In this document: piece by piece, positions 1 through 23,510 of the stretch
Position numbering within the stretch: the first letter of the stretch is position 1
Layout of the letters: every line of letters starts with the position of its first letter
Assembly (NCBI GenBank): GCA_964503265.1
Contig: CAZCYO010000002.1
Location: 130,604 to 194,603 of the forward strand
DNA: 64,000 nt
Direction of reading: 5' to 3'
From: an uncultured Gammaproteobacteria bacterium
GTDB taxonomy: Bacteria > Patescibacteriota > Microgenomatia > Levybacterales > UBA12049
The notes under the pieces: generated by a model
The model's database searches: none
Told to the model about the DNA's origin: nothing
What the model saw: only the letters and a program-made list of their open reading frames with translations
Translations under genes and position numbers: made by a program

Positions 1-1346
1 AAACATACAAAGACTGTTTACAATTTATTGATTCATACTGGGATAAGATTATCCATGATTCTAAAGACAGCCAAGGAGATCCACATATCATTCCGCTTCC
101 AAATACATTTATTACGCCTAATGCAACATCTCACTGGAGAAACGCAATGTTTTATTGGGACAACTTTTTTATGTTCCGTGGACTCATCGGAACAGAGCGT
201 GAATGGGTAATCACAGAAGCAGTAGATAACCTTATTTATTTGTATAATACGTTCGGAATAATCCCAAATGCAAGTGTATGGGCCTTTTTAGGTCACTCTC
301 AGCCACCACTATTGACATCAATGATCTTCGATGCATACTACTCTATTCAACGAGCTAGTGGTGTTTCTGAACTTGGGAAAAATGCTTTTATTAAGAGATG
401 GTTACAAAGTAGAATTGACGTCGCAAAAAAAGAATATGAGCACGTATGGATGGATGATACACGATATACACATCGTGTTGAAAAATATGATCTAAGTAGA
501 TATGGAGACCGCGACGTCGGGTATGCTCTCACATCCGAACGAGAATCTGGCTGGGATTTTACGACTCGTTTTTATAATCGTTGTAATGATTTTTTACCTG
601 TCGATCTTAATTCATATCTCCATAAATATGAAAAGGACTTTGCAAAAGCTGCTAATATTCTCGGTCAAAAAGATGAAGAAAAAATGTGGGATGACAAAGC
701 TGAAAAACGACGGAAAACAATTAGTACATATATGTGGAACGAAGAAAAAGGCTTTTTCTTTGATTACGATTACCAGTATGGTCAACAAAGTGAATTTTAT
801 TCACTCGCTGGCTTTGTCCCATTATGGGGGAAGGTAGCGACATATGAACAGGCAAAAAAGGCGAGAGAAAAACTTCCTCTTTTTGAAACAGATTATGGAC
901 TAACTATTACTGCTCGAGACTCAATGCCACCAGCGCTTCATTTCGAACATATCCCTGAAGCGTATCGATATTCGATTGAAGAAATGATGGAACCGAAACA
1001 ATGGGATTATCCGCATATCTGGGCTCCGCTTGAATACCTTACAGTCATAGGTCTTCTTAGGTATGGCTTTACTGACGACGCAGCAAGAATTATGAAAAAA
1101 TCTATAAAAGCTAACTATGCAGTATTTAAAAAATATGGCATGCTCCTTGAAAAACTAGATGCAACGACGGGGGAGAAACCAAAAGATTTTTGGTACCCCT
1201 CTCAATTGGGCTTTGGATGGACAAACGGAGTATTTCACCGATATGTCTCTTTACTCGATCTCATTACAGATAAAAAAGGGAAGATCCTAAGTGACGAACG
1301 ATTAAAAAAAGGTCCACCATATAGCCTTACAGATATTATTCATTAA
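1..1346 (+). CDS. trehalase (glycoside hydrolase family 37), 5'-truncated at window edge
   Basis: Frame 3 is open from nt 3 (TYKDCLQFIDSYWDKIIHDSKDSQGDPHIIPLPNTF...). Carries both GH37 signature regions (...AMFYWDNFFMFRGL... and ...QWDYPHIWAPLEYL...). Confidence 0.8.
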   Translation, partial: TYKDCLQFIDSYWDKIIHDSKDSQGDPHIIPLPNTFITPNATSHWRNAMFYWDNFFMFRGLIGTEREWVITEAVDNLIYLYNTFGIIPNASVWAFLGHSQPPLLTSMIFDAYYSIQRASGVSELGKNAFIKRWLQSRIDVAKKEYEHVWMDDTRYTHRVEKYDLSRYGDRDVGYALTSERESGWDFTTRFYNRCNDFLPVDLNSYLHKYEKDFAKAANILGQKDEEKMWDDKAEKRRKTISTYMWNEEKGFFFDYDYQYGQQSEFYSLAGFVPLWGKVATYEQAKKAREKLPLFETDYGLTITARDSMPPALHFEHIPEAYRYSIEEMMEPKQWDYPHIWAPLEYLTVIGLLRYGFTDDAARIMKKSIKANYAVFKKYGMLLEKLDATTGEKPKDFWYPSQLGFGWTNGVFHRYVSLLDLITDKKGKILSDERLKKGPPYSLTDIIH

Positions 1347-2077: not shown

Positions 2078-3211
2078 CCTCAAAAAACAGAGAAAAATGG
2101 TCATTTCTGAGGCTAATACGTCACCAGATGCTCCAGGACACGTCAAATATATTAAAATGAATAAGTAGTCGTCTAAGTTGCGTGGATTTACCCTTACTTG
2201 TCTACAAACTCTTAAAAAACCCTTAATCAACCCCTGAAAATAGTTATATCTGCAATGTTAACAAATCGCAAGAAATAATGTACATCTACAGATCGAATTA
2301 TCATTCTATCCAACACTTGTGCAGTCAGTAGTAGCTATAAGGTCCTTCTCTCCGCATAGATTGTCAAGGGAAGGGCTATTTACTCACTATTTAGCCTTGG
2401 ATTTTGAGAAAAAAACGTTGTGAAAAATGCGTCAGTCCCATAGTGGGGAAGTCTGACAAATAAAGAATTAAGAGAAAGTTACGGAGAAATAAGCACGAAC
2501 AATATAAATAGGTACATTATTGACACCAAATATGTACAAATTGAGGCTAAAGAAAACAAGTCCTCTCCACGGTTTTCTCGATCATCATGTCGTAAAAGTA
2601 TTATTGTGCGACATGATGATATTCTCTTCTCTGGGCTTTGGGTTAGTACCAGACCAACATGTGTACATAAGCAGTACCATAAGAAGCATACTATCGATAA
2701 CTAATTGTTAACTTGTGCCTATTCTAGCCCTTCCCCAGAGATGTCATTTTACGCGTTTTTAGCCTCTTTCTAATCTGTGAAAAGTGTAGTTATTTTCCAT
2801 GAAAAGTGTGCATAAACAGACATATTTACCTTGATAAATCAACCCATTCTCTATTATTTAGCTTCATATTGTTATAAAATATGTTATAGTATTTCGTATT
2901 TTTTTCGATTGATATCTGACTTGTTTGCTTCAATGCACTAGTCAACCCACATCCCTCTCCTCCACCCATATATATCAAACTATATCACTATTATCCTATA
3001 ATTATATTATGGGACTCTCCTGCTTGTAGCCTATTCCCACTTCTCTCTCTTCACCACTCTTCTTCTCTACCAATTTCAAACATCCTGCAAATTACCCTTT
3101 TATTGCACACATTTATTACAGAGAGAAATTGCTAATTTAGCAATTTAGCATTATAAATATAATAATTACTATAGGACGTTATAATGCATTGAAAGAAGCT
3201 TTTGAAGACCG

Positions 3212-4084
3212 CTATTTCCCCCACTGGGTGAAAAGAACTAACATAAAGAAAACAATAACGCATACCCAGGCATACTCCCATAGCACATTTCTAAAAAGTC
3301 GCTTTTCAAGCCATACGTGTGATAATCCTGCGAAGACATAGAAAATCCCTGTTAAAAAAATGGCGATGATAGTAGGACTTGTCGGCCAAAACCACACAGC
3401 AATAGCAATCTCAGCTAAACACGTCGTCATGCCAAGTATCCATAGAGGTGTTGAGTATCCTGTTTTTTGCAGTGAGTATGTCCAGATCGAGTGAAATGAT
3501 AAAAGATAGGTATAGATAGCTACGAGGAGTACTTCATAGAGAACGAAGATGTGGAGTGAAAAAACGATATTAGAAAAGAAGAAATATGACAGTAATGTAA
3601 TTACAAAAGAAACAATTCGTGCACCAGATAATAATTGAATTGTACGAATGGACGAAACAACAAAAATATTTTGACTTAAAAATAACGAATATAATCCAAA
3701 GGCATACAACAGTGTTAGTAATAATCTAAAAATAATCCTTCCTGGAATTAAAAAATAGAACGATCCAAATGCGAGTGAGTAAAAGAATGGAAGAATAAAT
3801 ACAACAAACCCATTCGTCTCATTTAGATCATCTTTAATCGCCCAAAAGAGACAAATATCTGTAAGGATTGATAGAACGAGACCCGTCAGCAGCCCTGATT
3901 TTCCAAACTGAAATTCACTAATAAAAAGGAGAATGGAAAGCAGTGTCACTGAAATAATAAATTTTTGTCTTTTCTCAATCGTAAATTGGATTATTTTTTT
4001 TGTACTTTTCCCTTTCGGTTTTGTTTTTGCGGTAAAACGACCGGGGAAAAGTGATGAGAAAGAAAATCGGTGTAAAAGTTGCAT
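3212..4084 (-). CDS. polytopic integral membrane protein, function unknown
   Basis: 290-aa ORF with many hydrophobic helices; basic N-terminal tail. Confidence 0.45.
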   Translation of the reverse strand: MQLLHRFSFSSLFPGRFTAKTKPKGKSTKKIIQFTIEKRQKFIISVTLLSILLFISEFQFGKSGLLTGLVLSILTDICLFWAIKDDLNETNGFVVFILPFFYSLAFGSFYFLIPGRIIFRLLLTLLYAFGLYSLFLSQNIFVVSSIRTIQLLSGARIVSFVITLLSYFFFSNIVFSLHIFVLYEVLLVAIYTYLLSFHSIWTYSLQKTGYSTPLWILGMTTCLAEIAIAVWFWPTSPTIIAIFLTGIFYVFAGLSHVWLEKRLFRNVLWEYAWVCVIVFFMLVLFTQWGK

Positions 4085-4111
4085 AATGAGGAGTCTAAAT
4101 AGTATACCGCA

Positions 4112-4861
4112 TTAGCTTAGTTGTTTCATTACTTCGTCTGGAATATCAAAGTTAGCATATACTTTTTGTACATCTCCCAGTGATTCAAGCCGCTCAAGGA
4201 GCGAGAGAATTTTTTGTGCTTTTTCAATCTCTTCAATTGAAACAATAATAGTTGGCTTTCGCGTAAATTCCGCACCAGTAATGGTAAGTCCTGCATTCGC
4301 AAGTGTTTCTCGCACAGCATTTAACTCCTCTGGTTTCGTATAAACCGTAACTTCTTCTTCTCCATCTTCCACATCTTCTGCCCCAGCCTCTGCAGCAGTT
4401 AAAAACAACTCGTCCAGTGTCTGACCATTTTTTTGCACAGAAATAAGGCCTTTTTGTTCGAATTGATATGAAACAGCTCCAGGAACTCCGAGACTACCCC
4501 CATTTTTATCAAATGTACTTTTTACCTCGCTTACTGTTCGCTGATTATTGTCAGTTGCGGTTTCGACGATAATACTGACTCCACCAGGGCCAAACCCTTC
4601 ATAAACTGCTTCATCCATATCCCCTGCCATTTTCCCAGATGCACGAGAAATTGCCCGGTCAATATTATCTTTTGGCATATTTGCGGCACGCGCTGCATCA
4701 ACTGCTAAACGGAGCTTGAAGTTAAAACTAGGATCTGCCGATCCACCACTTCTAACTGCAATAGTAATCGCATTTGAAAGCTTCGTGAAAGCTTGCCCTC
4801 TTTTCGAGTCGTTTAATCCTTTTTGTCTTTTAATTGTTGACCACTTAGAATGTCCACTCAT
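4112..4861 (-). CDS. yebC: YebC/PmpR family DNA-binding regulatory protein
   Basis: N-terminus MSGHSKWSTIKRQKG... and full-length similarity pattern typical of YebC/TACO1 family. Confidence 0.85.
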   Translation of the reverse strand: MSGHSKWSTIKRQKGLNDSKRGQAFTKLSNAITIAVRSGGSADPSFNFKLRLAVDAARAANMPKDNIDRAISRASGKMAGDMDEAVYEGFGPGGVSIIVETATDNNQRTVSEVKSTFDKNGGSLGVPGAVSYQFEQKGLISVQKNGQTLDELFLTAAEAGAEDVEDGEEEVTVYTKPEELNAVRETLANAGLTITGAEFTRKPTIIVSIEEIEKAQKILSLLERLESLGDVQKVYANFDIPDEVMKQLS

Positions 4862-5013
4862 AAATTAGCGTTTAGAAATTAGTAATAAGCGTTTAGATCA
4901 ATTCAAACAAATTTTATCTATACGCTAACAGCTTTTATCTAACCGCTGTATTATACCCTCTCATTATTGACTTTTGCAACAAAACAACGTAAAATTTCTT
5001 CTTAACGTGCTGG

Positions 5014-5736
5014 ATGATATTTTCTCTCTTTAAAGCACATAAAAGAATGAATTCTCTAAAAAACCAAGCAATTCAAGCAGCGCTACACGGAGATTGGAAC
5101 AACGCAATTACCCTTAACAAGGAGATTCTTCAAGAAGAGCCAGAAAATATTGACGCACTTAATCGATTAGGTTTTGCTCATGCAAGTCTTGGTACTATCG
5201 ATTCTGCAAAAGAGTTTTACCAAAAAGTGCTTGAACTTGATATACAAAATCCGATTGCTACAAAAAACCTCAAGAGATTAAACAGTATGAATGGGAAAAC
5301 ACCCGCTCCTGTTATTTATAAGATGAATAATATTTTCATCGAGGAACCAGGTAAAACAAAAGTTATTGAACTTCTTAACATCGCTGATCAAAAAGCGACA
5401 TCTCACCTCCATTGTGGTGAAGAGCTCCAGCTTTCTGTGAAAAGAATGAAAATATTTGTGCTCGATAACGAAAAACAATATATTGGTATGCTTCCAGATG
5501 ATACGAGTAAGCGCCTGATTGATTTCATCCAAGGAGGCAATATTTATGAAGCATATGTAAAAACAGTCGATGAACACAAAGTAACAGTATTTGTCAAAGA
5601 AACATTCAGATCTCCTAAATATAAAAACCAACAATCATTTATCAATACTGAAAAATCAAAATTATCATTTGAGACAAAGGGTTCAGGAGATGATGAAGAT
5701 AACGATGATTCGGTTAACGATCAAAGCGACGAATGA
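5014..5736 (+). CDS. hypothetical TPR-like protein with acidic S/D/E-rich C-terminal tail
   Basis: Helical repeat-like N-terminal region (…ALNRLGFAHASLGTIDSAKEFYQKVLELD…); C-terminal GSGDDEDNDDSVNDQSDE. Start may be the internal Met at 5047. Confidence 0.4.
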   Translation: MIFSLFKAHKRMNSLKNQAIQAALHGDWNNAITLNKEILQEEPENIDALNRLGFAHASLGTIDSAKEFYQKVLELDIQNPIATKNLKRLNSMNGKTPAPVIYKMNNIFIEEPGKTKVIELLNIADQKATSHLHCGEELQLSVKRMKIFVLDNEKQYIGMLPDDTSKRLIDFIQGGNIYEAYVKTVDEHKVTVFVKETFRSPKYKNQQSFINTEKSKLSFETKGSGDDEDNDDSVNDQSDE

Positions 5737-5881
5737 CCTCGATGAAATACCACACGTTCTTTCTTAAGTGATTTTCGTGCTTGAGAAATCTCTTTTATTT
5801 TACGTAAATTCCATAGTGAAAATAACGATAACAAAAAAGACAGCACCGCAATTCCTAACACGATAACCAAAAATGGAATAT

Positions 5882-6670
5882 TCATTTTACTATTCCTTTC
5901 TGAAAGTCTTCTCCAAGAGTTACTACGATATCAGATAGTCCTTTGTTTTCTTGTGATTGTGCTGTGACGTGAAGAATTCTTTCTAGTTTTTTGACCGTGT
6001 ATGTTTTATTTCCATAATACATTAGTTTAGATTTTACAGAAGTGTTAGGTGCTGAAGTAACGGAGATTACTGTACCTCCTGATTTTTCTATAATATCACC
6101 AAATCGAGATCCTAATCCTGATGTATCAGATGCGTTAATAATAGAAAGTGTCTTGTTATCGTTCGTAATACCACTATCGATCATAAGATCTTTTGTCTCT
6201 GTAGTAAACTTTTCTTGTGGTAGTGGAAATTCATATGATTGACGTATTATATCTTCTTCAGGTATCGCTTTACTCGCTGTAATGAGTCTAAGCATGTCAT
6301 AGGCATTAACATGTAAGTTTATAAGAAGATCAGATAGGTCGGCTGTTACTGAACGCTCAGGCGAAGTATTGTGGTTGACTACAGTGTCAATCGGTAACCC
6401 AAGAAATATATCTAAGGGAGGCAAGTCGTCTTTTCCTTTTAGAAAAAGTACAAGCATTTTCTTAGAAGTCGGATCTAAGGAAATAATTTTTGCTTCTTTT
6501 GCATTTTTTTTAATTTCAATGGTATATCTGTGATCTCCGTCAAAAGTACTTGAGCGAATAAGAGTAAAAAGTCGTATTCCAAGAGAAATAGCTATGAGAA
6601 GTAATACAAAAATACAAAAGAAAATAACTTTCTGAATACTGTTTGGTTCACGAGCTTTCGTATGTTTCAT
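5882..6670 (-). CDS. membrane-anchored hypothetical protein (single N-terminal TM; possible LytR_C-like fold)
   Basis: N-terminal TM helix followed by a soluble domain; only weak resemblance to LCP C-terminal domains. Confidence 0.35.
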   Translation of the reverse strand: MKHTKAREPNSIQKVIFFCIFVLLLIAISLGIRLFTLIRSSTFDGDHRYTIEIKKNAKEAKIISLDPTSKKMLVLFLKGKDDLPPLDIFLGLPIDTVVNHNTSPERSVTADLSDLLINLHVNAYDMLRLITASKAIPEEDIIRQSYEFPLPQEKFTTETKDLMIDSGITNDNKTLSIINASDTSGLGSRFGDIIEKSGGTVISVTSAPNTSVKSKLMYYGNKTYTVKKLERILHVTAQSQENKGLSDIVVTLGEDFQKGIVK

Positions 6671-7019
6671 GGGCAGAAATCACATGGTATCAAGAGTATC
6701 AGATGTATCAAAAGCTTATGCTTGATTTAAAGCTCCTGGTACCTTTGATACCCCTGATACTTTTTAACCCTTTTATTTATTGGTTTGGTTTTTTCTTTTC
6801 AATTACTTTTGGTAAAACAAAAGTAGGTGCGTTTGATGGATATTGAGAAATATTTTTGTTTTCTTGTTGTTTTTTTTTCTTTTTTTCACCTTTATAAAAA
6901 TCTCCAGCCATAAATACTCAACCCCCTTTCTCGTAATGATTAGTTATTTGTGATTGGTAATTAGACAATAAGGATTTTGTCCAATAACTAATAACCCATC
7001 ACCGATATAATTATTTTAC

Positions 7020-10419: not shown

Positions 10420-11412
10420 CTATTTGCTACGCTTGTATCTGAATAAACCAGACACTGGAATAACTTCTACTCCTTTCTTTTCAAGTGCATCTAAGAAAAT
10501 ATTCGCACCTATCGAATCTGCTGCCATATGACCACAGTCAATAACATTTACATGATGTTTCTTAAGCTCTGTCAATGCATCTTCTGCCACATGCATTTCA
10601 ACAATAGTTCCGACACCAGCTTTCGCCATTTCAACATAAAGTTCCTTCGATGGATTAGTTCCACCGGTGAAACTGACAACTACTTTACCTGCTCGACGAT
10701 TTTTCGATCCAGAAACAATCTCAGGTCCAGCTTTCTGACGATGTGCTTCTGTGAATTCTGGAATATCATTAATCACATCGAGAACATCTCCTGCTGTTTC
10801 GAAAGTATTTTTCGCAAATAAATCCTTCATGAATTTATCTCCTAAGTTATCCCAGATCGTATGAAGCGCCATATATGGCATTTCAAGAGCTCGTGCGATA
10901 TCAACAGCCTGGCCATGATTAATCGGTCCAAAGCGACGTTTCACTAGTCCCATTCTTTCTTCAAATAGTGCCTGTGCGACGTTTTCAGGAACTCCAGCTT
11001 TAGCGAACATATCGATTTGAAGATCCATCACTTCATGAAGTGCAGCGAGTGCATGACCACTTGGATGATGCGAAATGACCAATCCGATATCGCGCCCTTT
11101 TTCATTTAGTCTATCTGCTAGAAGTACTTCGGCACCATCGGTATCTATCCCAGCTAACACTTGTTTTACCTGTTTTTTAGGATCACCAAACAGAAGTCGT
11201 GAATCAGAATAGGGATTCGTGAGGGATTCAGTATCGTAGAGTTTTTTCTTTTTTTCTGGGAGTTCATCGTAGGCTTTTTTCGCCTTTTTCATGACTTCTT
11301 TCAGTCGAGCCGTGCCGCGTGGATCTGCAGCCATACCCATTTCAAGTGCTAAGTCATATATTTGTTGTATAGTCATGCTTCTGAGTATATAATAGAGAGG
11401 CTCAAAAATCAA
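10420..11412 (-). CDS. NIF3-family dinuclear-metal-centre protein (longer than typical, with an N-terminal extension)
   Basis: ISHHP and C-terminal VIDCGHMAADSIG motifs resemble NIF3/YqfO metal-binding His clusters. Confidence 0.5.
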   Translation of the reverse strand: MIFEPLYYILRSMTIQQIYDLALEMGMAADPRGTARLKEVMKKAKKAYDELPEKKKKLYDTESLTNPYSDSRLLFGDPKKQVKQVLAGIDTDGAEVLLADRLNEKGRDIGLVISHHPSGHALAALHEVMDLQIDMFAKAGVPENVAQALFEERMGLVKRRFGPINHGQAVDIARALEMPYMALHTIWDNLGDKFMKDLFAKNTFETAGDVLDVINDIPEFTEAHRQKAGPEIVSGSKNRRAGKVVVSFTGGTNPSKELYVEMAKAGVGTIVEMHVAEDALTELKKHHVNVIDCGHMAADSIGANIFLDALEKKGVEVIPVSGLFRYKRSK

Positions 11413-11427
11413 TGAAAACTGATGATG

Positions 11428-11446
11428 AGATCCTATGATTCCCGAT
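11428..11446. repeat. palindrome TTCCCGA-TCAAG-TCGGGAA (6-5-6) upstream of tRNA-Leu
   Basis: Read directly. A second near-identical copy lies at 13488..13506. Confidence 0.6.
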
Positions 11447-11487
11447 CAAGTCGGGAATGACAACTATCGTTAAGATAATAGGAATTA

Positions 11488-11571
11488 GCCGAGGTGGCGG
11501 AATGGTATACGCGGCAGTCTCAAAAACTGCTGGCCTTAACGGCCTTGAGGGTTCGAGTCCCTCCCCCGGTA
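11488..11571 (+). tRNA. tRNA-Leu (anticodon CAA), class II with long variable arm; CCA not encoded
   Basis: Acceptor GCCGAGG, D-arm GCGGAATGGTATACGCG, anticodon stem-loop GCAGT-CTCAAAA-ACTGC, variable arm GGCC-TTAAC-GGCC, T-arm GAGGG-TTCGAGT-CCCTC, 3' acceptor strand CCCCGGT (one A:C mismatch, one G:U), discriminator A. Confidence 0.8.
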
Positions 11572-11600
11572 CAAATTATGATATTCTAAAGTTACTGTTT

Positions 11601-12440
11601 ATGTCAGAATTAACTGGTTCAAATAATCCCTCAACTATAGAGATAAATCCTCCATTAGAAGTAGAGGGTGAAAAAAGGAGAAAAATTGCAGAAATAACAA
11701 CTGCTGATCAGACAGCATTTGAGGAGTGGACAAAAGATAAAGATCATGCCCGTAGACTGGGCATGCCCAAAGAAGTACTACGGTATTTACTTATTCCACA
11801 ACGAACTCTTGAATTAGCAGATGACCCAACGAATGTAGATTTATTGATCATTAATCAAGATCCACAAAAGGTAAAGTCTTTCGTAATCGAACATAAGACA
11901 CACCCTATTTCAAATCATACTAGCCTACTGACATATTGGAAAAATGAGGAACGTTTAAGAAGCGAAGGAGAAGCACGCGCTCAAGCAACCGGTGGACTGT
12001 TTATATTCGTTTCCTCCGAGCCTCCACCAGACGTAGATCTATATCATGCACGAAATAGGGATCTCATTGAAAATGGACAATTAGGATTAAATGATTATGT
12101 CACCAACGATATTTCTTTATCTATATCCAATGGTGATCAGATAAATGTAGGAAATTATCAAGATCGAGAAGAGTTTAGGGGAAAAGGTATAGCTACCTCA
12201 TTTTATTCAAGATTACATAACGCCGCAGGAGAAATGGGAATTAGGTTTATTACAGGATTAAATAATCGACGTAATATTAGTTACTTTACTGATAAACTCG
12301 GCAGGAGCACACTTGCAGAAATAAAGCCAGAATTAAGAACAACCTTTAATAGTAATCCAAGTGGAGAAATTTTGGAAAATCTCACAATTGATTTTATCAA
12401 ACCCGAAGATCAAGCAGCTTTCGTCTCCTCTGAAAAATAA
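11601..12440 (+). CDS. hypothetical protein with C-terminal GNAT-like acetyltransferase motif
   Basis: Start moved to Met at 11601 because the ORF-track start (11457) runs through the tRNA gene. Motif ...EEFRGKGIATSFYSRLHNAAGEMGIRFITG resembles the GNAT acetyl-CoA binding R/Q-x-x-G-x-G/A motif. Confidence 0.4.
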   Translation: MSELTGSNNPSTIEINPPLEVEGEKRRKIAEITTADQTAFEEWTKDKDHARRLGMPKEVLRYLLIPQRTLELADDPTNVDLLIINQDPQKVKSFVIEHKTHPISNHTSLLTYWKNEERLRSEGEARAQATGGLFIFVSSEPPPDVDLYHARNRDLIENGQLGLNDYVTNDISLSISNGDQINVGNYQDREEFRGKGIATSFYSRLHNAAGEMGIRFITGLNNRRNISYFTDKLGRSTLAEIKPELRTTFNSNPSGEILENLTIDFIKPEDQAAFVSSEK

Positions 12441-12515
12441 ATGGAATGATGGATTTGACTAAGTATCAAGAAATCTACTCAAAATAGTCCGCTCATGTTA
12501 TTCCTCCCTTTAAAC

Positions 12516-12572
12516 GCAAAAACCCCTCCAGACAGAGTGTCGGGAGGGGTTTTGCACGGTACAATTTTTTTT
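12516..12572. terminator. bidirectional rho-independent terminator between converging genes
   Basis: GCAAAAACCCCTCC-(13 nt)-GGAGGGGTTTTGC, a 13-bp GC-rich stem, followed by TTTTTTTT on the plus strand and a T-rich run on the minus strand. Confidence 0.55.
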
Positions 12573-12589
12573 GCGGAATTGGAGTACTG

Positions 12590-13021
12590 CTACTCCTCAG
12601 AGGTGAGATTGAATGGAGCGATCCAGAAATCGTATTCCCGATTACGGCGCTCGCGCTGTTCTCGTTCGTACAGACATTCTGGACACTCATCACTCGACAC
12701 CGGTAAAGCATCCCGGTAACCTTTGTTAAACCGGGTGATGCATTCCTGCTCAAGATTGCTACCACGTGGAGCAGTAAAAACGTGGCGACCGTATTGGCAC
12801 TGGACGTTGTAGGGTGTGTAATCCTCGTCTGTGCCACTGAGAATCCGCGCAATGATGTTGCCGCCTCCTTTTCCCCATTGGGAATCGGAGAGCATCTGGA
12901 CCAATTCCATGGTCTCTTGGACCTCAGGGGAAATCTCGACTGGCGGTGCTGGCAATGTGCCGTAAAGCGCATTGACTCGCCGGCGGGTCGAGTTCGATAG
13001 AAGTTCGAACATGGTTGCCAT
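12590..13021 (-). CDS. hypothetical protein (GC-rich islet gene 2; Cys pairs CQYGRH...CPECLYE may bind metal)
   Basis: 143-aa ORF in a segment whose GC content (~55% by eye) is far above the window background. The competing overlapping ORF 12493..12972 looks compositionally artificial. Confidence 0.35.
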   Translation of the reverse strand: MATMFELLSNSTRRRVNALYGTLPAPPVEISPEVQETMELVQMLSDSQWGKGGGNIIARILSGTDEDYTPYNVQCQYGRHVFTAPRGSNLEQECITRFNKGYRDALPVSSDECPECLYEREQRERRNREYDFWIAPFNLTSEE

Positions 13022-13051
13022 TATGGAGTACTCCTTGCCGCTGGAAGCGGC

Positions 13052-13396
13052 CTATACACGAGCAGCACGCCGAGCTTGGCGCGCTGCAGCTTTGTGGCTA
13101 ACCCTTGGGGTTGCCACGACGGGAATCATGGGCGTGGAGGGGACCTTAGTTAATTCCCTCCAATTCCTGGGAGTAGCCATATTCCAGCCATCCCGTTCGA
13201 TTTGCGATGTCCCTTCGGACGTCTTAACAGTAAGGATGGCTTTGGGATACGTCGGCGGACCATTCGGTCCATCCACATACTTGAAATAGAGATGTTCTCC
13301 ATGATTCGTGATTTCCTCAAAGCTGAGGCGTTCGTGTGAGAATTTGGAACGTCCGACTTCTTCACCATTGACGGTGAGTGTGAGTTCGTAGCGCAT
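13052..13396 (-). CDS. hypothetical protein (GC-rich islet gene 1; Arg-rich C-terminus)
   Basis: 114-aa ORF in the same high-GC segment, 30 nt upstream of the previous gene on the same strand. Confidence 0.35.
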   Translation of the reverse strand: MRYELTLTVNGEEVGRSKFSHERLSFEEITNHGEHLYFKYVDGPNGPPTYPKAILTVKTSEGTSQIERDGWNMATPRNWRELTKVPSTPMIPVVATPRVSHKAAARQARRAARV

Positions 13397-13487
13397 GAAT
13401 CCTCCTTATACGATAGCCATCAATCCACGGAACCATTTTAGCGAGTATAGTTACTCACCAAAACGGTTCCATAGATGTATATTCCGC

Positions 13488-13506
13488 AAATCCCGATTAA
13501 ATCGGG
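13488..13506. repeat. palindrome ATCCCGA-TTAAA-TCGGGAC (6-5-6), second copy of the TCCCGA-N5-TCGGGA motif
   Basis: Read directly. Lies ~95 bp upstream of the start of the GC-rich islet operon (minus strand) and ~150 bp downstream of the ddl stop. Confidence 0.6.
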
Positions 13507-13650
13507 ACAAATTGTAAACGTGCAAAGAAAATATATATGAAGATTATGATAGACAGAAAATGAGTCTAGGTAAACGTCAAATATAGCCGTGAATATAGCA
13601 TAAAATGGAAAGAAAGTCAAACTATGGGCTTATTTATTATTGATAATAAC

Positions 13651-14793
13651 TTACTTCGCTTGAAGAGCTAACTGAATAAGTTCGTCAATTAATTCACTGT
13701 ATACTACACCGCTTGCTTCCCATAATTTCGGGTACATACTAATTTTCGTAAATCCTGGCATCGTATTAATTTCATTAACATAGAGCATTCCTTCTTCTGT
13801 GAGAAAGAAATCCACTCGAGATAGTCCTCGTGCTTCAAGAACTTGGAAGGTTTTAATGGCTAAACGCTGTACTTCTTTAAGTGTTTCCTCTGAAATGTCT
13901 GCTGGGATTTGTAATTTCGCTCCATTTTCATCGAGATATTTCGCATCGTAATCATAAAATTCATGTGTCGGGATGATTTCTCCAGCGATTGATGCTTTTG
14001 GATCATCGTTCCCAAGTACTGCACACTCAATTTCTCGACCTTTTATAAATTCCTCGATAATAATTTTCCGGTCATGAGTAAATGCTTCAGTGATTGCTTG
14101 TTCGAGTTCTGCTCTATCATGTGCTTTACTGACTCCAACTGATGAGCCTAGATTAGCGGGCTTTACGAAGAGAGGTAACCCAAAGTCTTCAATGATTTGA
14201 TCAATAGTTAATTTGTCATCCCCGACCCGATCGGGGATCCATTCAACCATCTCCTTAGCCTGGATTCCCGTTTTCACGGGAATGACAGATGAGCGGCGTA
14301 AAACCAAGAATTTCCCGATAGGAATCCCTGCATCTCGAAGAAGGCGCTTCATCACATCTTTATCCATTCCGACGGCGGATCCTAATACATCTGACCCGAC
14401 GAATGGAATTCCAAGTGTTTTAAGCATTCCCTGGATGGTTCCGTCCTCACCCATAGGGCCGTGAAGAAGTGGAAACACTACCATGTCATGTTGAGCTGAA
14501 TTGGACATCTCACTAGTACCTTGACGGTGATCCTGAACCAAGTTCAGGATGACATTATTTTTTGTATTCTCGGTTATGAGAGATTTCTCGCTGTCACTCG
14601 AAATGACAAGTGTAGGCGAAGATAGTTGACTAATTGAAATATCATGCCAGGTTCCTTTTTTTGAAATATAAATTGGAGTGACTTCATATTTTTCTTTATC
14701 GAGAGCCGCATAGACGTTTTTCGCAGATTGAATCGATACATCATGTTCTGCTGACTGTCCGCCAAATAATAATACTACTCGTATTTTCTTCAT
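13651..14793 (-). CDS. ddl: D-alanine--D-alanine ligase
   Basis: MKKIRVVLLFGGQSAEHDVSIQSA... and ATP-grasp C-terminal motifs. Start ATG (14793-14791) overlaps the murF stop (14792-14790) in an ATGA arrangement. Confidence 0.9.
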   Translation of the reverse strand: MKKIRVVLLFGGQSAEHDVSIQSAKNVYAALDKEKYEVTPIYISKKGTWHDISISQLSSPTLVISSDSEKSLITENTKNNVILNLVQDHRQGTSEMSNSAQHDMVVFPLLHGPMGEDGTIQGMLKTLGIPFVGSDVLGSAVGMDKDVMKRLLRDAGIPIGKFLVLRRSSVIPVKTGIQAKEMVEWIPDRVGDDKLTIDQIIEDFGLPLFVKPANLGSSVGVSKAHDRAELEQAITEAFTHDRKIIIEEFIKGREIECAVLGNDDPKASIAGEIIPTHEFYDYDAKYLDENGAKLQIPADISEETLKEVQRLAIKTFQVLEARGLSRVDFFLTEEGMLYVNEINTMPGFTKISMYPKLWEASGVVYSELIDELIQLALQAK

Positions 14794-16112: not shown

Positions 16113-18011
16113 TTATTTTCTCACACCACAACACCTGCCTACCCAGGCGTCACTTCCCCATTTGGTGGAATACTGGTCAACACATGAATTTACTTTTCCA
16201 CAGCCACATTCTTCAAATACACACGTGTAATTTCCTTTTTTACAGCTCCCACTAAATCCTCTATTTGGAGACTCCCCACATGCATTTACTGGAGGTTGTG
16301 GTTGTGTTACTACTTGTACTGGTGATACAACAGCTGGGTCGGTAGACGGAATCTTCGTGTCAACTTTTGGTGTTGCTGGTTGAGATGGTGAGTCTTGTGG
16401 AGGAAAATCTCGCCACGGATTAGGTTTGGTAGTCCATTCAGCTGCGGCATTTAACGCACAAACCCAATCTCCCTCAGTACATGTTGAGCGAATACAATTT
16501 TCCCCAGTTCCTGCATCTTCAATACCTGATGTAACAGATGGATTTGGACATTTATTCGTACCACCTTGTGTCGTATACACAGGTGTTATCTGTGGTATAG
16601 GTTTTTTATTAGATTGTGGACTTCCACCATCAATGGGTACACTTTGAGAAGTCCCAACCAATGAATCAAGTTTGTCATTTATAGCTTTTTGGGAAACAAG
16701 ATTATAATCAGTATACGGATATGTATCGGGGTTATATCCATGTTTTCCACCTCTTCCCATCGCACTTCCTTCTGCTGATCTGAACCAATTCGCATAATGA
16801 CAGCCTTGGAAATATGTTATATCTCCAATAGTTGTTGCCCAACGTTCATCCTTTTGAGCTACATTACTACAATTTGGCCCAAGTGTTATATCATCTTCAC
16901 TAAACCTATCTGACCCATCAGGCTTGGTATATACATACTCATCATATAATCCCATTATATGCCCAAATTCATGTACAAAATTTTTTTCATTTTTAGGATG
17001 ATTCTGTAAAAAAGCTAGTGTTCCATCAATAAATGCACTTCCATCACGCTTCTCTCCATTATATTTATTACTAATAATGACAATTTTATCGTAGGATATT
17101 CCAGCATCAGCTAGTACCGTTTCTGGATTCACGTCACTATTGCACCAAAAAGTCCCTTGATCGTAGTCACAACCCAGATCATCATTGGTGTACCAAAATT
17201 TTTTAAAGTTAATTTGGTCTTGTCGATAAGAAAATGGAGCTTTTTGGAGTAAGAAATTAGCAAATCGCTGAGCATCAGACTCAAATGCTTGCTTTCCAGA
17301 ATCACTTTTTTCATAGTGGTCACTAATAAAAACAATCTGAAGTTTATTATTCTCAGCAGCAAATGCATGATGTACCCATGAGAAAGAATGCAAAAGGGTT
17401 GTGCGTACAGAATCAATCAAACCCGTAGGTAATAACGATAGCTCTTTTCTTTCAGTTTCAGATAAATGATATACATTACTTACGACGTTGTTATTAGTTA
17501 CAATTTGGATACTAGCAATACTCTGAAGATATGGAGTTACAAGTACCATATTTCTTTTAGATAGTAACAAGGTTCCGCTATTTGCATCAGATTCTGCAGA
17601 AAGCATGGTATACACATTAAATGGTTGTTTGTACAAAAGTGTTCCTTGTACATCTCTATATTCAACCGTATACAACACAGTCGTTTTTGCATATTTAGGA
17701 ACAGTACCTTTCGATAATGAAACATTTTGAATCAAAAAAAGAGGTGTTTGTTTTTTGTCGTACGTTAGTGAAAGATGCAGGGTTTTATTAGGATACATGG
17801 TGATAAGAGATTGTTGCTGAGACACCTGAGGAATTGCTGTGACAGATTTTTTCGTTGGTGATGAGAACGATGACAGTAATACAATCCCTACACATAGGAA
17901 AATACCGATAGTAAGTATCAGCCATTTGAATGTACGGAGTTTCGTAAAAAATAGTTGGCTTCTCGTTTCGTTTTCTTGAGAAAAATTTTCGTATGTATAA
18001 CGTTGTTCCAT
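16113..18011 (-). CDS. secreted/membrane-anchored zinc metallopeptidase-like protein (HEFGHIMGLYDEY; M64-like motif) with Cys-rich C-terminal module
   Basis: N-terminal TM/signal anchor, HExxH...GLxDEY motif, and a C-terminal 60 residues holding about 10 Cys. Confidence 0.5.
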   Translation of the reverse strand: MEQRYTYENFSQENETRSQLFFTKLRTFKWLILTIGIFLCVGIVLLSSFSSPTKKSVTAIPQVSQQQSLITMYPNKTLHLSLTYDKKQTPLFLIQNVSLSKGTVPKYAKTTVLYTVEYRDVQGTLLYKQPFNVYTMLSAESDANSGTLLLSKRNMVLVTPYLQSIASIQIVTNNNVVSNVYHLSETERKELSLLPTGLIDSVRTTLLHSFSWVHHAFAAENNKLQIVFISDHYEKSDSGKQAFESDAQRFANFLLQKAPFSYRQDQINFKKFWYTNDDLGCDYDQGTFWCNSDVNPETVLADAGISYDKIVIISNKYNGEKRDGSAFIDGTLAFLQNHPKNEKNFVHEFGHIMGLYDEYVYTKPDGSDRFSEDDITLGPNCSNVAQKDERWATTIGDITYFQGCHYANWFRSAEGSAMGRGGKHGYNPDTYPYTDYNLVSQKAINDKLDSLVGTSQSVPIDGGSPQSNKKPIPQITPVYTTQGGTNKCPNPSVTSGIEDAGTGENCIRSTCTEGDWVCALNAAAEWTTKPNPWRDFPPQDSPSQPATPKVDTKIPSTDPAVVSPVQVVTQPQPPVNACGESPNRGFSGSCKKGNYTCVFEECGCGKVNSCVDQYSTKWGSDAWVGRCCGVRK

Positions 18012-18013
18012 AA

Positions 18014-18658
18014 TTAGTTAAATACAAACTGCATCATGTGACACATATTTAGCTGCGTGACTGTTGCTTTTATTCCTGGAATAAATGTTCCAACTTGCAA
18101 AGCACTATTTGCTGCAAGTACTTTTTTAGATGTCTGCATATTAGCTATAGCTATCTTTGGGAAGTTATTTTCCCTGTTACTTTGTTTACGTGTACATGTT
18201 GCATCTGCACGAATTGTATAAATATCTCCATGTTTAACTACGCTTCTTTTTGGTGTTGTATACGTCCATTGCGATTCAAAAAGGCTTCCTGTCTGGTCAC
18301 TAGGAGATTTCGTGCTGATAATTTCAGGAGACACTGATAACTCTTCAATTGTATTATTCCGCTCTCTAAGCTCGTGAAACCTAACAGCTATGACATCGAC
18401 CCCTGATAACCCTGAAGTTACTTTTATGCGATACGAAAATGTCGTAGTACTATCAGTAGCAATCTCTGTCGCATTCAAACTTTCACAGCTACAATGTGGT
18501 TCTTCCGTAACGACATTCTCTGAGGCATGTTGCCTATTATCTTGTGAATAAGAGAGGGTAAAAAGAGTAGTAGGTATTGCCAGTAGAATCACAATTATCC
18601 CAAACAAACGTATGTTCTTTTGTAGAGTAAATCGACTAAAAAAAGGTACATTTTTCAC
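18014..18658 (-). CDS. hypothetical membrane-anchored secreted protein
   Basis: N-terminal TM helix; ends 2 nt upstream of the next gene on the same strand. Confidence 0.4.
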   Translation of the reverse strand: MKNVPFFSRFTLQKNIRLFGIIVILLAIPTTLFTLSYSQDNRQHASENVVTEEPHCSCESLNATEIATDSTTTFSYRIKVTSGLSGVDVIAVRFHELRERNNTIEELSVSPEIISTKSPSDQTGSLFESQWTYTTPKRSVVKHGDIYTIRADATCTRKQSNRENNFPKIAIANMQTSKKVLAANSALQVGTFIPGIKATVTQLNMCHMMQFVFN

Positions 18659-23262: not shown

Positions 23263-23510
23263 CAATTTAGAAAAAGCGTTACTACTGGAGTCACGATCCA
23301 GGACCCACTTCGCTAATCCCGATATATTCGAGACTAAAGATACGAAGGTGGGACGATGATCTTCAAAATAAGATACGGAAGTTTAACCGTTAAATTGAAC
23401 AGACGATGTCGCGTAAGCGGAGTCGCCACTAAGAGCTTTTTGGAGTAATCCGAAAAGAAAAAGGATGGGACCGCGAGAGGTCCTTTTTTATTACCTCTCG
23501 TTCCTTTTTC
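23263..23510 (+). promoter_or_regulatory. probable T-box riboswitch leader (His-specific) controlling hisG-hisE-hisS
   Basis: T-box-like sequence AAAAAGGAUGGGACCGCG at 23457-23475 against consensus AAUUAGGGUGGNACCGCG. The UGGG bulge is complementary to the CCCA 3' end of tRNA-His. The downstream 8-bp helix is mutually exclusive with it, and a CAC triplet sits in the loop of an upstream hairpin (CUGGA-GUCACGA-UCCAG). Confidence 0.55.
23474..23510 (+). terminator. leader terminator (CGAGAGGU...ACCUCUCG + UUCCUUUUUC)
   Basis: 8-bp perfect helix followed by a U-rich tract; the 5' strand overlaps the 3' half of the T-box sequence. Confidence 0.5.

Follow-up and report, generated by a model that had tools for sequence, protein, structure and literature searches.

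Genomic islands are typically found at the 3' ends of tRNA genes and deviate in composition from the genomes that carry them (PMC2704930). We analysed a 64,000-nucleotide stretch of DNA from an uncultured bacterium (contig CAZCYO010000002.1; hereafter the window, with coordinates counted from its first letter), in which a GC-rich operon of about 1.1 kb, comprising two open reading frames (ORF1 and ORF2), lies on the 3' side of a tRNA-Leu(CAA) gene. Like a tRNA-associated island, this islet deviates in GC content and codon usage and carries accessory genes of unknown function, and the 2.07-kb slot that holds it is strain-variable and starts no more than 5 nt from the tRNA 3' end. On balance, we think it probable that the islet is a foreign, compact accessory operon in a tRNA-flank hotspot, which it reached either as cargo of a since-decayed element or by recombination.

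The initial annotation, made from the letters of the window, had reported a sharp rise in GC content at 12575-13440, and the computed composition bears this out: the segment is 52.3% GC against 38.6% for the whole window, and 866-nt windows that exclude it average 38.5% (SD 3.0%) and reach 48.3% at most. In a sliding window, GC stands at about 0.34 over 12200-12500, at 0.52-0.57 over 12600-13300 and again at 0.32-0.34 by 13400-13800. A maximal-segment scan singled out the same region (12523-13276, listed below); the next-best segment of the window scored 12.7, the best of 200 shuffles no more than 12.0, and the smaller GC peaks of the window fall within housekeeping genes, for example those for YchF, lactate permease and ADH. 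GC at codon positions 1, 2 and 3 is 0.57, 0.49 and 0.52 in ORF1 and 0.58, 0.44 and 0.58 in ORF2. The codon-usage check that had been proposed thus gives a third-position GC (GC3) of 0.52-0.58 against about 0.30, the values for four neighbouring genes being 0.24-0.34 and the mean over the 41 long ORFs of the window 0.30. Since the excess lies at synonymous sites, amino-acid content does not explain the anomaly. In GC, GC3 and segment score alike, the operon shows the deviating composition of a genomic island. The features to which we refer are the following.

11488-11572, plus strand: tRNA-Leu(CAA), found by ARAGORN and by Rfam (52.7 bits); one boundary of the slot.
11577-13650, no strand: hypervariable slot from the tRNA 3' end to the ddl stop codon, defined by three-genome alignments.
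11601-12440, plus strand: weakly GNAT-like gene, 279 aa, GC 0.367, GC3 0.24.
12519-12553, both strands: bidirectional terminator-like hairpin, an inverted repeat with a CCCCTCC/GGGAGGGG stem.
12523-13276, no strand: top-scoring GC-rich segment of the maximal-segment scan, 754 nt, 54.1% GC, score 37.1.
12590-13021, minus strand: ORF2, 143 aa, with ribosome-binding site (RBS) AAGGAG at 13031-13036.
12662-12814, minus strand: conserved domain of about 50 aa in ORF2 (residues 70-120), from family alignments.
13031-13051, minus strand: intergenic stem-loop GCCGCU-UCC-AGCGGC, -12.2 kcal/mol, with the ORF2 RBS AAGGAG directly after it.
13052-13396, minus strand: ORF1, 114 aa, with RBS AAGGAGG at 13401-13407.
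13423-13476, minus strand: 5' leader hairpin of 25 bp with five G.U pairs.
13592-13620, minus strand: sigma-70-like promoter candidate, TTGACT, 17-nt spacer, TG-n-TATATT.
13651-14793, minus strand: ddl (D-Ala-D-Ala ligase), identified by the Pfam domains of the same gene in assembly L001; the other boundary of the slot.

The stretch from ddl through the islet to the GNAT-like gene recurs in an independent ENA assembly (L001, 3410 bp), where, a gap of scaffolding Ns aside, a single base departs from the window; its junctions are identical. The islet is therefore not a chimera, and its junctions are real.

The setting of the islet was established by comparison with two relatives, L100 and L106, to which 90%-identity clusters of DnaB and EF-P from the window led (the DnaB protein of L100 is present on at least 24 contigs). 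Their nucleotide identity to the window is 72-81% and their GC content 39-40%, and both share with it the order dnaB-murF-ddl ... tRNA-Leu(CAA) ... EF-P-MFS-lgt. The tRNA-Leu(CAA), which ARAGORN and Rfam confirm as the neighbour named in the initial annotation, is 91% conserved in both, and ddl is 73-86% identical up to its stop codon. Homology breaks off exactly at that stop codon on one side and 3-5 nt past the tRNA 3' end on the other. These are genomes without the segment, of the kind with which a comparison had been called for: the islet is absent from both, and in its place L100 has a 293-aa transglutaminase-core gene and L106 an unrelated 212-aa gene, each host-like in GC, with GC3 of 0.26-0.28. 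In a more distant genome, L083, ddl is followed by HicB, HicA and then a GNAT-like gene. With conserved flanks and differing contents, the slot that holds the islet, 3' of the tRNA, is therefore hypervariable. The earlier proposal of horizontal acquisition at a tRNA hotspot thus has three independent lines of support: the synonymous GC excess, the relatives that lack the islet and a homologous islet beside smpB in another genome, described below.

Read along the minus strand, the operon consists of the candidate promoter, the leader hairpin, RBS and ORF1, a small hairpin, RBS and ORF2, and the terminator. The two minus-strand ORFs predicted earlier (114 and 143 aa, 30 nt apart) are both present, each behind a strong RBS. 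The promoter candidate, called from its consensus match alone, agrees at 10 of 12 positions and has an extended -10 element. At the far end, ORF2 and the convergent GNAT-like gene have in common the hairpin at 12519-12553, whose predicted folding energy is -26.8 kcal/mol on one strand and -26.1 kcal/mol on the other (z about -4), so that the strong bidirectional terminator seen in the initial annotation stands, at about -26 kcal/mol on both strands. ORF1 and ORF2 share one reading frame, separated by a TAG and nine further codons (13022-13054); we judge this coincidental because ORF2 has its own RBS and a conserved N-terminus, and TAG is a host stop codon. A palindrome, TCCCGAT-N4-TCGGGA, occurs at 11440-11456, 13491-13507 and 23317-23333, twice exactly and once with a single mismatch (five strand-matches against 0.04 expected). 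Between the two exact copies lie the tRNA-Leu gene and the variable slot. The motif might serve as a binding site for a regulator, as a weak terminator or in recombination.

Both proteins had been described as belonging to no recognisable family, which holds for ORF1 and fails for ORF2. A word-indexed search of 5.8 billion clusters returned only self-matches for ORF2, whereas an exhaustive HMMER search found 66 relatives, an uncurated family. Only one of these, P0007, is homologous over the full length (61% amino-acid identity, with a common Met-Ala-Thr N-terminus); the other 65 match residues ~70-120. Between ORF2 and the P0007 gene, codons differ at positions 1, 2 and 3 in 43, 26 and 87 cases, and 46 of 80 conserved residues are encoded by a different codon. 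By this third-position bias and these codon changes at conserved residues, ORF2 is shown to be a real gene, encoding a protein of an uncurated family under purifying selection.

ORF2 is acidic (pI 4.8) and combines an N-terminal helical region with a C-terminal Cys/His/Cys/Cys domain, whose consensus in the family alignment reads YNVQCLxGHVFxAxxGSxLExRCIxRExxGYLDALxxxxxECPxC. Residues C75, C113 and C116 do not vary, and conservation is at least 90% at Q74, G78, H80, E91, G101, D104 and A105. This pattern suggests a Cys/His/Cys/Cys metal site, and the domain probably binds zinc. Clustered at 50% identity, the domain family has at least 66 representatives, and it has so far remained uncurated; most members are short (60-110 aa) and acidic (median pI 4.7), a few carry the domain twice, and one is annotated from a Candidatus Uhrbacteria genome. 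AlphaFold2 (AF2), run with the family alignment, modelled ORF2 at a mean confidence (pLDDT) of 82, rising to 94-97 over the domain, with a predicted beta-beta-alpha-beta-alpha topology preceded by three helices. ORF2 had no match in Pfam, PHROGs, PADLOC or NCBIfam; nothing significant came from Foldseek searches of the model against PDB and BFVD, nor did profile searches of PDB sequences with the family find anything. Among the 67 aligned sequences (ORF2 and its 66 relatives), none reached the curated Pfam or NCBIfam thresholds, none matched PADLOC, and two matched PHROGs, each a different one of unknown function. Sub-threshold similarity appeared to Anti-TRAP (best E = 0.0027, in two of the 67) and to RtpA (15 bits against a cut-off of 65).

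ORF1 is basic (pI 9.8) because of its tail, HKAAARQARRAARV; the Arg-rich C-terminus noted earlier is indeed there, and the tail has a pI of 12. The protein matched only itself in the word-indexed search of the 5.8 billion clusters (the exhaustive HMMER search covered ORF2 alone), had no match in Pfam (even at E <= 10), PHROGs, PADLOC or NCBIfam, and has no relative at any of the 15 ORF2-family loci that were fetched. Modelled by AF2 from its single sequence, it is beta-rich with a C-terminal helix, at a pLDDT of 60. Its RBS, its position and this mediocre structure model make it probable that ORF1 is protein-coding. Several identities were considered for it. The succession of beta-hairpin, sheet and helix, together with the structured RNA, had brought to mind a levivirus coat protein, and none is found among the best 50 of 1213 Foldseek PDB matches (all with E >= 0.19). 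HicA proteins have a dsRBD-like fold with a catalytic His; ORF1 was rejected as a HicA (PF07927), the similarity being a 22-aa pairwise match to the HicA of L083 with no Pfam match at E <= 10, and no HicA structure is found among those best 50 matches. Against PDB sequences, a match to a designed Kelch propeller (8pjz) proved to be one 16-aa segment aligned repeatedly, with no single stretch significant.

The P0007 gene, at locus L093, provides the closest counterpart of the ORF2 end of the islet. It lies within an islet of 55-58% GC that abuts low-GC DNA (26-45%) carrying smpB, and its homology to the window begins directly past the stop codon of an upstream gene unrelated to ORF1. From there the homology spans the GCCGC...GCGGC hairpin, the AAGGAG RBS, the coding sequence, a TCCGCAAA motif and a terminator whose stem is similar to CCCCTCC. 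Fourteen further family loci were fetched (L085-L092 and L094-L099). The domain gene is GC-richer than its own locus in seven of L085-L092 and in all of L094-L099; family genes have 50-62% GC in almost every host examined, irrespective of host GC. Where a comparison could be made, GC3 of the family gene was 0.57-0.73 against 0.27-0.55 in host or flanking genes, an excess found at six of the seven loci having host ORFs to compare. The exception is L091, whose family gene has a GC of 0.37 in a locus of 0.35 and a GC3 of 0.25; the protein can therefore be encoded without high GC.

In at least 10 other genomes of lower GC, family members lie in GC-rich mini-islets of 0.3-2 kb, 10-20 GC points above the surrounding genome and at unrelated loci. 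Partner genes vary from locus to locus, some loci have no recognisable partner, and the companion genes have no Pfam matches. Several of these islets adjoin tRNA genes. One, at L095, is a GC-rich islet of three genes on the 3' side of another tRNA-Leu(CAA), in a genome that shares the RF1-L31-EamA-HisS-DnaB neighbourhood and whose DnaB is 60% identical to that of the window. A 30-nt near-copy of the tRNA T-arm and acceptor 3' end stands 35 nt downstream of this tRNA (L095 1255-1404; alignment score 40 against 17.6 +/- 2.0 in shuffles) and looks like an att-like scar of site-specific integration. At L088 a family islet accompanies tRNA-Gly(CCC), four other tRNAs and two large serine recombinase genes. 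There (2149-6969), the recombinase genes, oppositely oriented and closely similar in their N-terminal regions, flank the four-tRNA cluster, after which come a 900-nt GC-rich islet with the domain gene (0.55-0.58 against ~0.40) and then the tRNA-Gly(CCC). At L092, the GC-rich block of ~2 kb around the Uhrbacteria member encodes a 100-aa Cys- and Trp-rich protein (MSRSNCWEFKRCGREP...; 815-1117, minus strand) and further small unannotated proteins. Taken over all loci, the recurrent pattern in these sequences favours a mobile or frequently transferred cassette over a native gene.

The islet also carries an excess of predicted RNA structure. Against dinucleotide shuffles, successive 200-nt windows of its sense strand fold with z of -2.8, -2.3, -4.2 and -2.2; on both strands of 12600-13400 the values are about -2 to -5 per 200 nt, and for the whole islet region z is -6 to -7. 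Controls gave -0.32 +/- 1.06 (GC-matched, from other genomes) and 0.01 +/- 1.22 (host windows). Family coding sequences at other loci fold no better than shuffles, and the signal is therefore specific to this islet. One part of it is strand-specific: the leader hairpin, perfectly paired and single-copy within the window, reaches -36.8 kcal/mol (z = -10.8) on the minus strand; owing to its five G.U pairs, the figure for the plus strand is only -18.8 kcal/mol. The asymmetry indicates that the hairpin acts at the RNA level, for example as a processing or regulatory site, and one idea is that the Arg-rich tail of ORF1 binds it. In Rfam 15, only the tRNA passes its gathering score, and the best match inside the islet has E = 0.83. 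An integron cassette ends, on its 3' side, in an attC site with R''(RYYYAAC)/R'(GTTRRRY) cores and has intI nearby. On a direct reading of the sequence, with no window-wide search for intI, the operon was rejected as an attC cassette, since the hairpin lies 5' of ORF1, its arms (ACGGAAC / GTTCCAT) depart from the core consensus, and the G.U asymmetry favours RNA.

In the account that we favour, the operon is a self-contained accessory unit of foreign origin, and its slot runs exactly from the ddl stop codon to the tRNA-Leu(CAA) 3' end. It was probably carried in by an integrative element that targets tRNA genes and that has since lost its integrase and attachment (att) sites, or else may have recombined directly into the hotspot, and its composition would not yet have drifted to that of the host. 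The tRNA-adjacent GNAT-like gene is host-like in composition, and filling the slot therefore took at least two steps.

Several points weigh against this account. The GC-rich operon begins ~950 nt from the tRNA, with the host-composition gene in between. The three slot proteins have no Pfam, PHROG or PADLOC match bar the weak GNAT one, and no integrase, transposase or other mobility gene was found among them; of the other slot ORFs none has the size of an integrase, the one longer ORF (12493-12972, 159 aa) overlapping ORF2 in another frame. Even at best, local alignments between the 3' half of the tRNA and the slot or its boundaries score no higher than shuffles (z about 0), so no att repeat was detected, and an 18-nt imperfect terminal inverted repeat (12551-12567 and about 13509-13526) was rejected as not exceeding shuffled controls. 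Phage and plasmid homologues, for which the initial annotation had suggested looking, did not turn up in the collections searched (distant-mode blastn and tblastn), nor in viral contigs scanned with ORF1, ORF2 and the domain alignment. The GC excess throughout the family could reflect selection for GC or for RNA structure instead of a recent transfer in every case. ORF1 has no homologue, and its coding status leans on its RBS, its position and the mediocre model. As to function, a toxin-antitoxin (TA) role draws solely on gene size, order and charge and on a distant HicAB pair, with no Pfam, PADLOC or fold match.

That functional reading, which is compatible with a foreign origin, takes the operon for a type II TA addiction module with the toxin first, built along the lines of MqsR/MqsA or HicA/HicB: the toxin would be the basic ORF1, acting on RNA, and the antitoxin the acidic ORF2 with its zinc domain. 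We consider it doubtful. It accommodates two small co-oriented genes with a 30-nt gap, a candidate promoter and a terminator of their own, and products of pI 9.8 and 4.8; TA modules commonly accumulate in hotspots, such as the one that holds the islet, and in L083 the HicB-HicA pair sits just downstream of ddl, by the GNAT-like gene, its HicA sharing with ORF1 a 22-residue local similarity (GxH..F...DG). That similarity, however, emerged from a screen of 1529 ORFs with an E of about 0.1, and neither protein of the operon matches Pfam, NCBIfam or PADLOC (ORF1 even at E <= 10). The best-50 Foldseek lists contain no toxin fold, their sole antitoxin match being a non-significant one to YefM (E = 5.6), and the family's partners elsewhere are non-homologous or not recognisable, unlike a conserved TA pair. 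In a looser form, which we likewise regard as unlikely, the operon would be a TA-like or autoregulatory two-protein module in which nucleic acid, perhaps the structured RNA of the operon itself, may be bound by the basic, Arg-tailed ORF1, and the acidic ORF2 may partner or neutralise that protein. Quite unlikely, to our mind, is the broader proposal that genes of the YNVQC type mark an unrecognised class of integrase-less GC-rich cassettes of 0.3-2 kb that repeatedly enter tRNA 3' flanks and other intergenic hotspots and maintain their GC and RNA structure as features of the element, beyond what the donor left them. Such cassettes would have their own promoter, hairpins and terminator and low-GC uncultured bacteria as hosts, and the domain protein could be their conserved core, acting in addiction, in anti-defence or as an RNA-binding partner.

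Each of the remaining alternatives we reject as a sole explanation. GC-rich islands in AT-rich genomes are often structured non-coding RNAs (ncRNAs), and the block could consist mainly of one large such RNA with incidental ORFs: its sense strand folds beyond the controls throughout (z -2.2 to -4.2 per 200 nt), its leader hairpin is strand-specific, and by our estimate ~0.5 ORFs of 114 codons would be expected in the segment by chance at 53% GC. We hold this to be very unlikely, given that no Rfam family matches even at E <= 10, that ORF2 is conserved as a protein, with third-position-biased divergence and invariant Cys/His residues, that the family's coding sequences show no excess folding at other loci, and that a canonical RBS precedes both ORFs. 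A native segment that owes its composition to amino-acid content or to selection on the gene family is very improbable. The GC-richness of family genes in nearly all hosts would fit a family-intrinsic constraint, and L095 has a family member by tRNA-Leu(CAA) too; yet both syntenic relatives lack the operon, the excess lies at synonymous sites, the L091 member is encoded at 37% GC, and ORF1, which stands outside the family, is equally GC-rich. L095 bears in particular on a statement of the initial annotation, that homologues of the same composition at the same locus in related genomes would speak against transfer. Superficially L095 offers such a homologue, but its partner genes differ and closer relatives lack the islet, so repeated targeting fits better than vertical inheritance. 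Hardly credible, finally, is an assembly chimera or contaminant, or a single gene read through its in-frame TAG. The abrupt change of composition and the common frame of ORF1 and ORF2 might suggest one or the other. The first is countered by the identical junctions of the independent assembly, the second by the RBS of ORF2, by the Met-Ala-Thr start kept in P0007 behind an unrelated upstream gene, and by the ordinary use of TAG as a stop in this host (9 of 46 long ORFs).

The surroundings of the foreign operon show further variation. The gene that the initial annotation called GNAT-like is present, and its label has behind it a sub-threshold Pfam match (Acetyltransf_1, E = 0.17). Its protein has just four homologues, at 33-44% identity, among the 5.8 billion clusters; the one in L083 (1931-2686) is again near a ddl gene, which hints at a lineage-specific, cell-wall-linked function. 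Between dnaB and murF, at 16113-18658, the window encodes two proteins, of 214 and 632 aa, the larger of which has a weak M64-peptidase match. These genes, of host-like GC (0.37), are absent from L100 and L106, where murF follows dnaB directly, and by this comparison another strain-specific insertion lies here, ~3 kb away from the first. On the other side of the slot, a closer relative, L108, is 87% identical in nucleotide sequence across NIF3, EF-P and MFS. Its homology to the window ends just upstream of the NIF3-like gene (L108 1-290 against 11394-11480), and its remaining 290 nt contain no tRNA-Leu; the 5' side of the tRNA is therefore also a rearrangement breakpoint. In L100, an M17 peptidase replaces the NIF3-like gene. 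The ddl gene itself is longer in the window (380 aa) than in relatives (344-369 aa). Two of its stretches, 14163-14303 and 14481-14686, have no nucleotide homology to the ddl of L100; the longer is unaligned in L106 too (14481-14636), where the alignment spans the shorter one. Among GTDB representative genomes its best match is only 57%, and the matches are scattered over phyla.

In itself, then, the islet is an ordinary small foreign islet in a tRNA-flank hotspot, useful as a marker of strain-variable DNA in a lineage that is uncultured and poorly sampled. The analysis also yielded two by-products: the family of a conserved, probably zinc-binding domain of ~50 aa, whose genes stand systematically 10-20 GC points above their carrier genomes, and the slot between ddl and tRNA-Leu(CAA), with a different cargo in every genome compared. 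Should the family prove to be the core of a mobile cassette, or else a new addiction or anti-defence module, it would help to account for the spread of tiny accessory genes among environmental bacteria with small genomes.

Set beside known systems, the islet differs from classical tRNA-associated islands in scale, these measuring 10-200 kb and the operon and its slot ~1.1 and 2.1 kb, and in equipment, since the integrase, direct repeats and mobility genes of the former were not found in this slot; a duplicated tRNA 3' fragment is seen at the related locus L095 and none was found at the slot of the window. With the structured ncRNA genes of AT-rich genomes it shares a local GC peak and an excess of predicted structure, and differs in having no Rfam match, in containing one ORF that is demonstrably coding, and in a structure not shared by its homologues. 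Compared with toxin-first type II TA modules (HicAB, MqsRA), it likewise has two small adjacent co-oriented genes with a basic and then an acidic product; a HicBA pair lies at the corresponding position in L083, and in MqsA, as in ORF2, the second protein has a zinc-type domain, N-terminal in MqsA and C-terminal in ORF2. Nevertheless, the proteins of the operon match no toxin or antitoxin family in sequence, profile or fold and have no recognisable DNA-binding domain, and family members elsewhere lack a conserved partner. For the ORF2 family, weak profile and fold matches point towards small zinc-ribbon and other zinc-binding proteins (for example Anti-TRAP/RtpA and the structural zinc site of the Fur/PerR dimerisation domain), all of them far below threshold (Foldseek probability <=0.2, TM <=0.23). 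The family is likewise short, acidic and Cys-rich, with a CPxC motif; its putative ligands follow the pattern C-x4-H ... C-x2-C with a helix between the two ligand pairs, unlike the classical two-knuckle ribbon.

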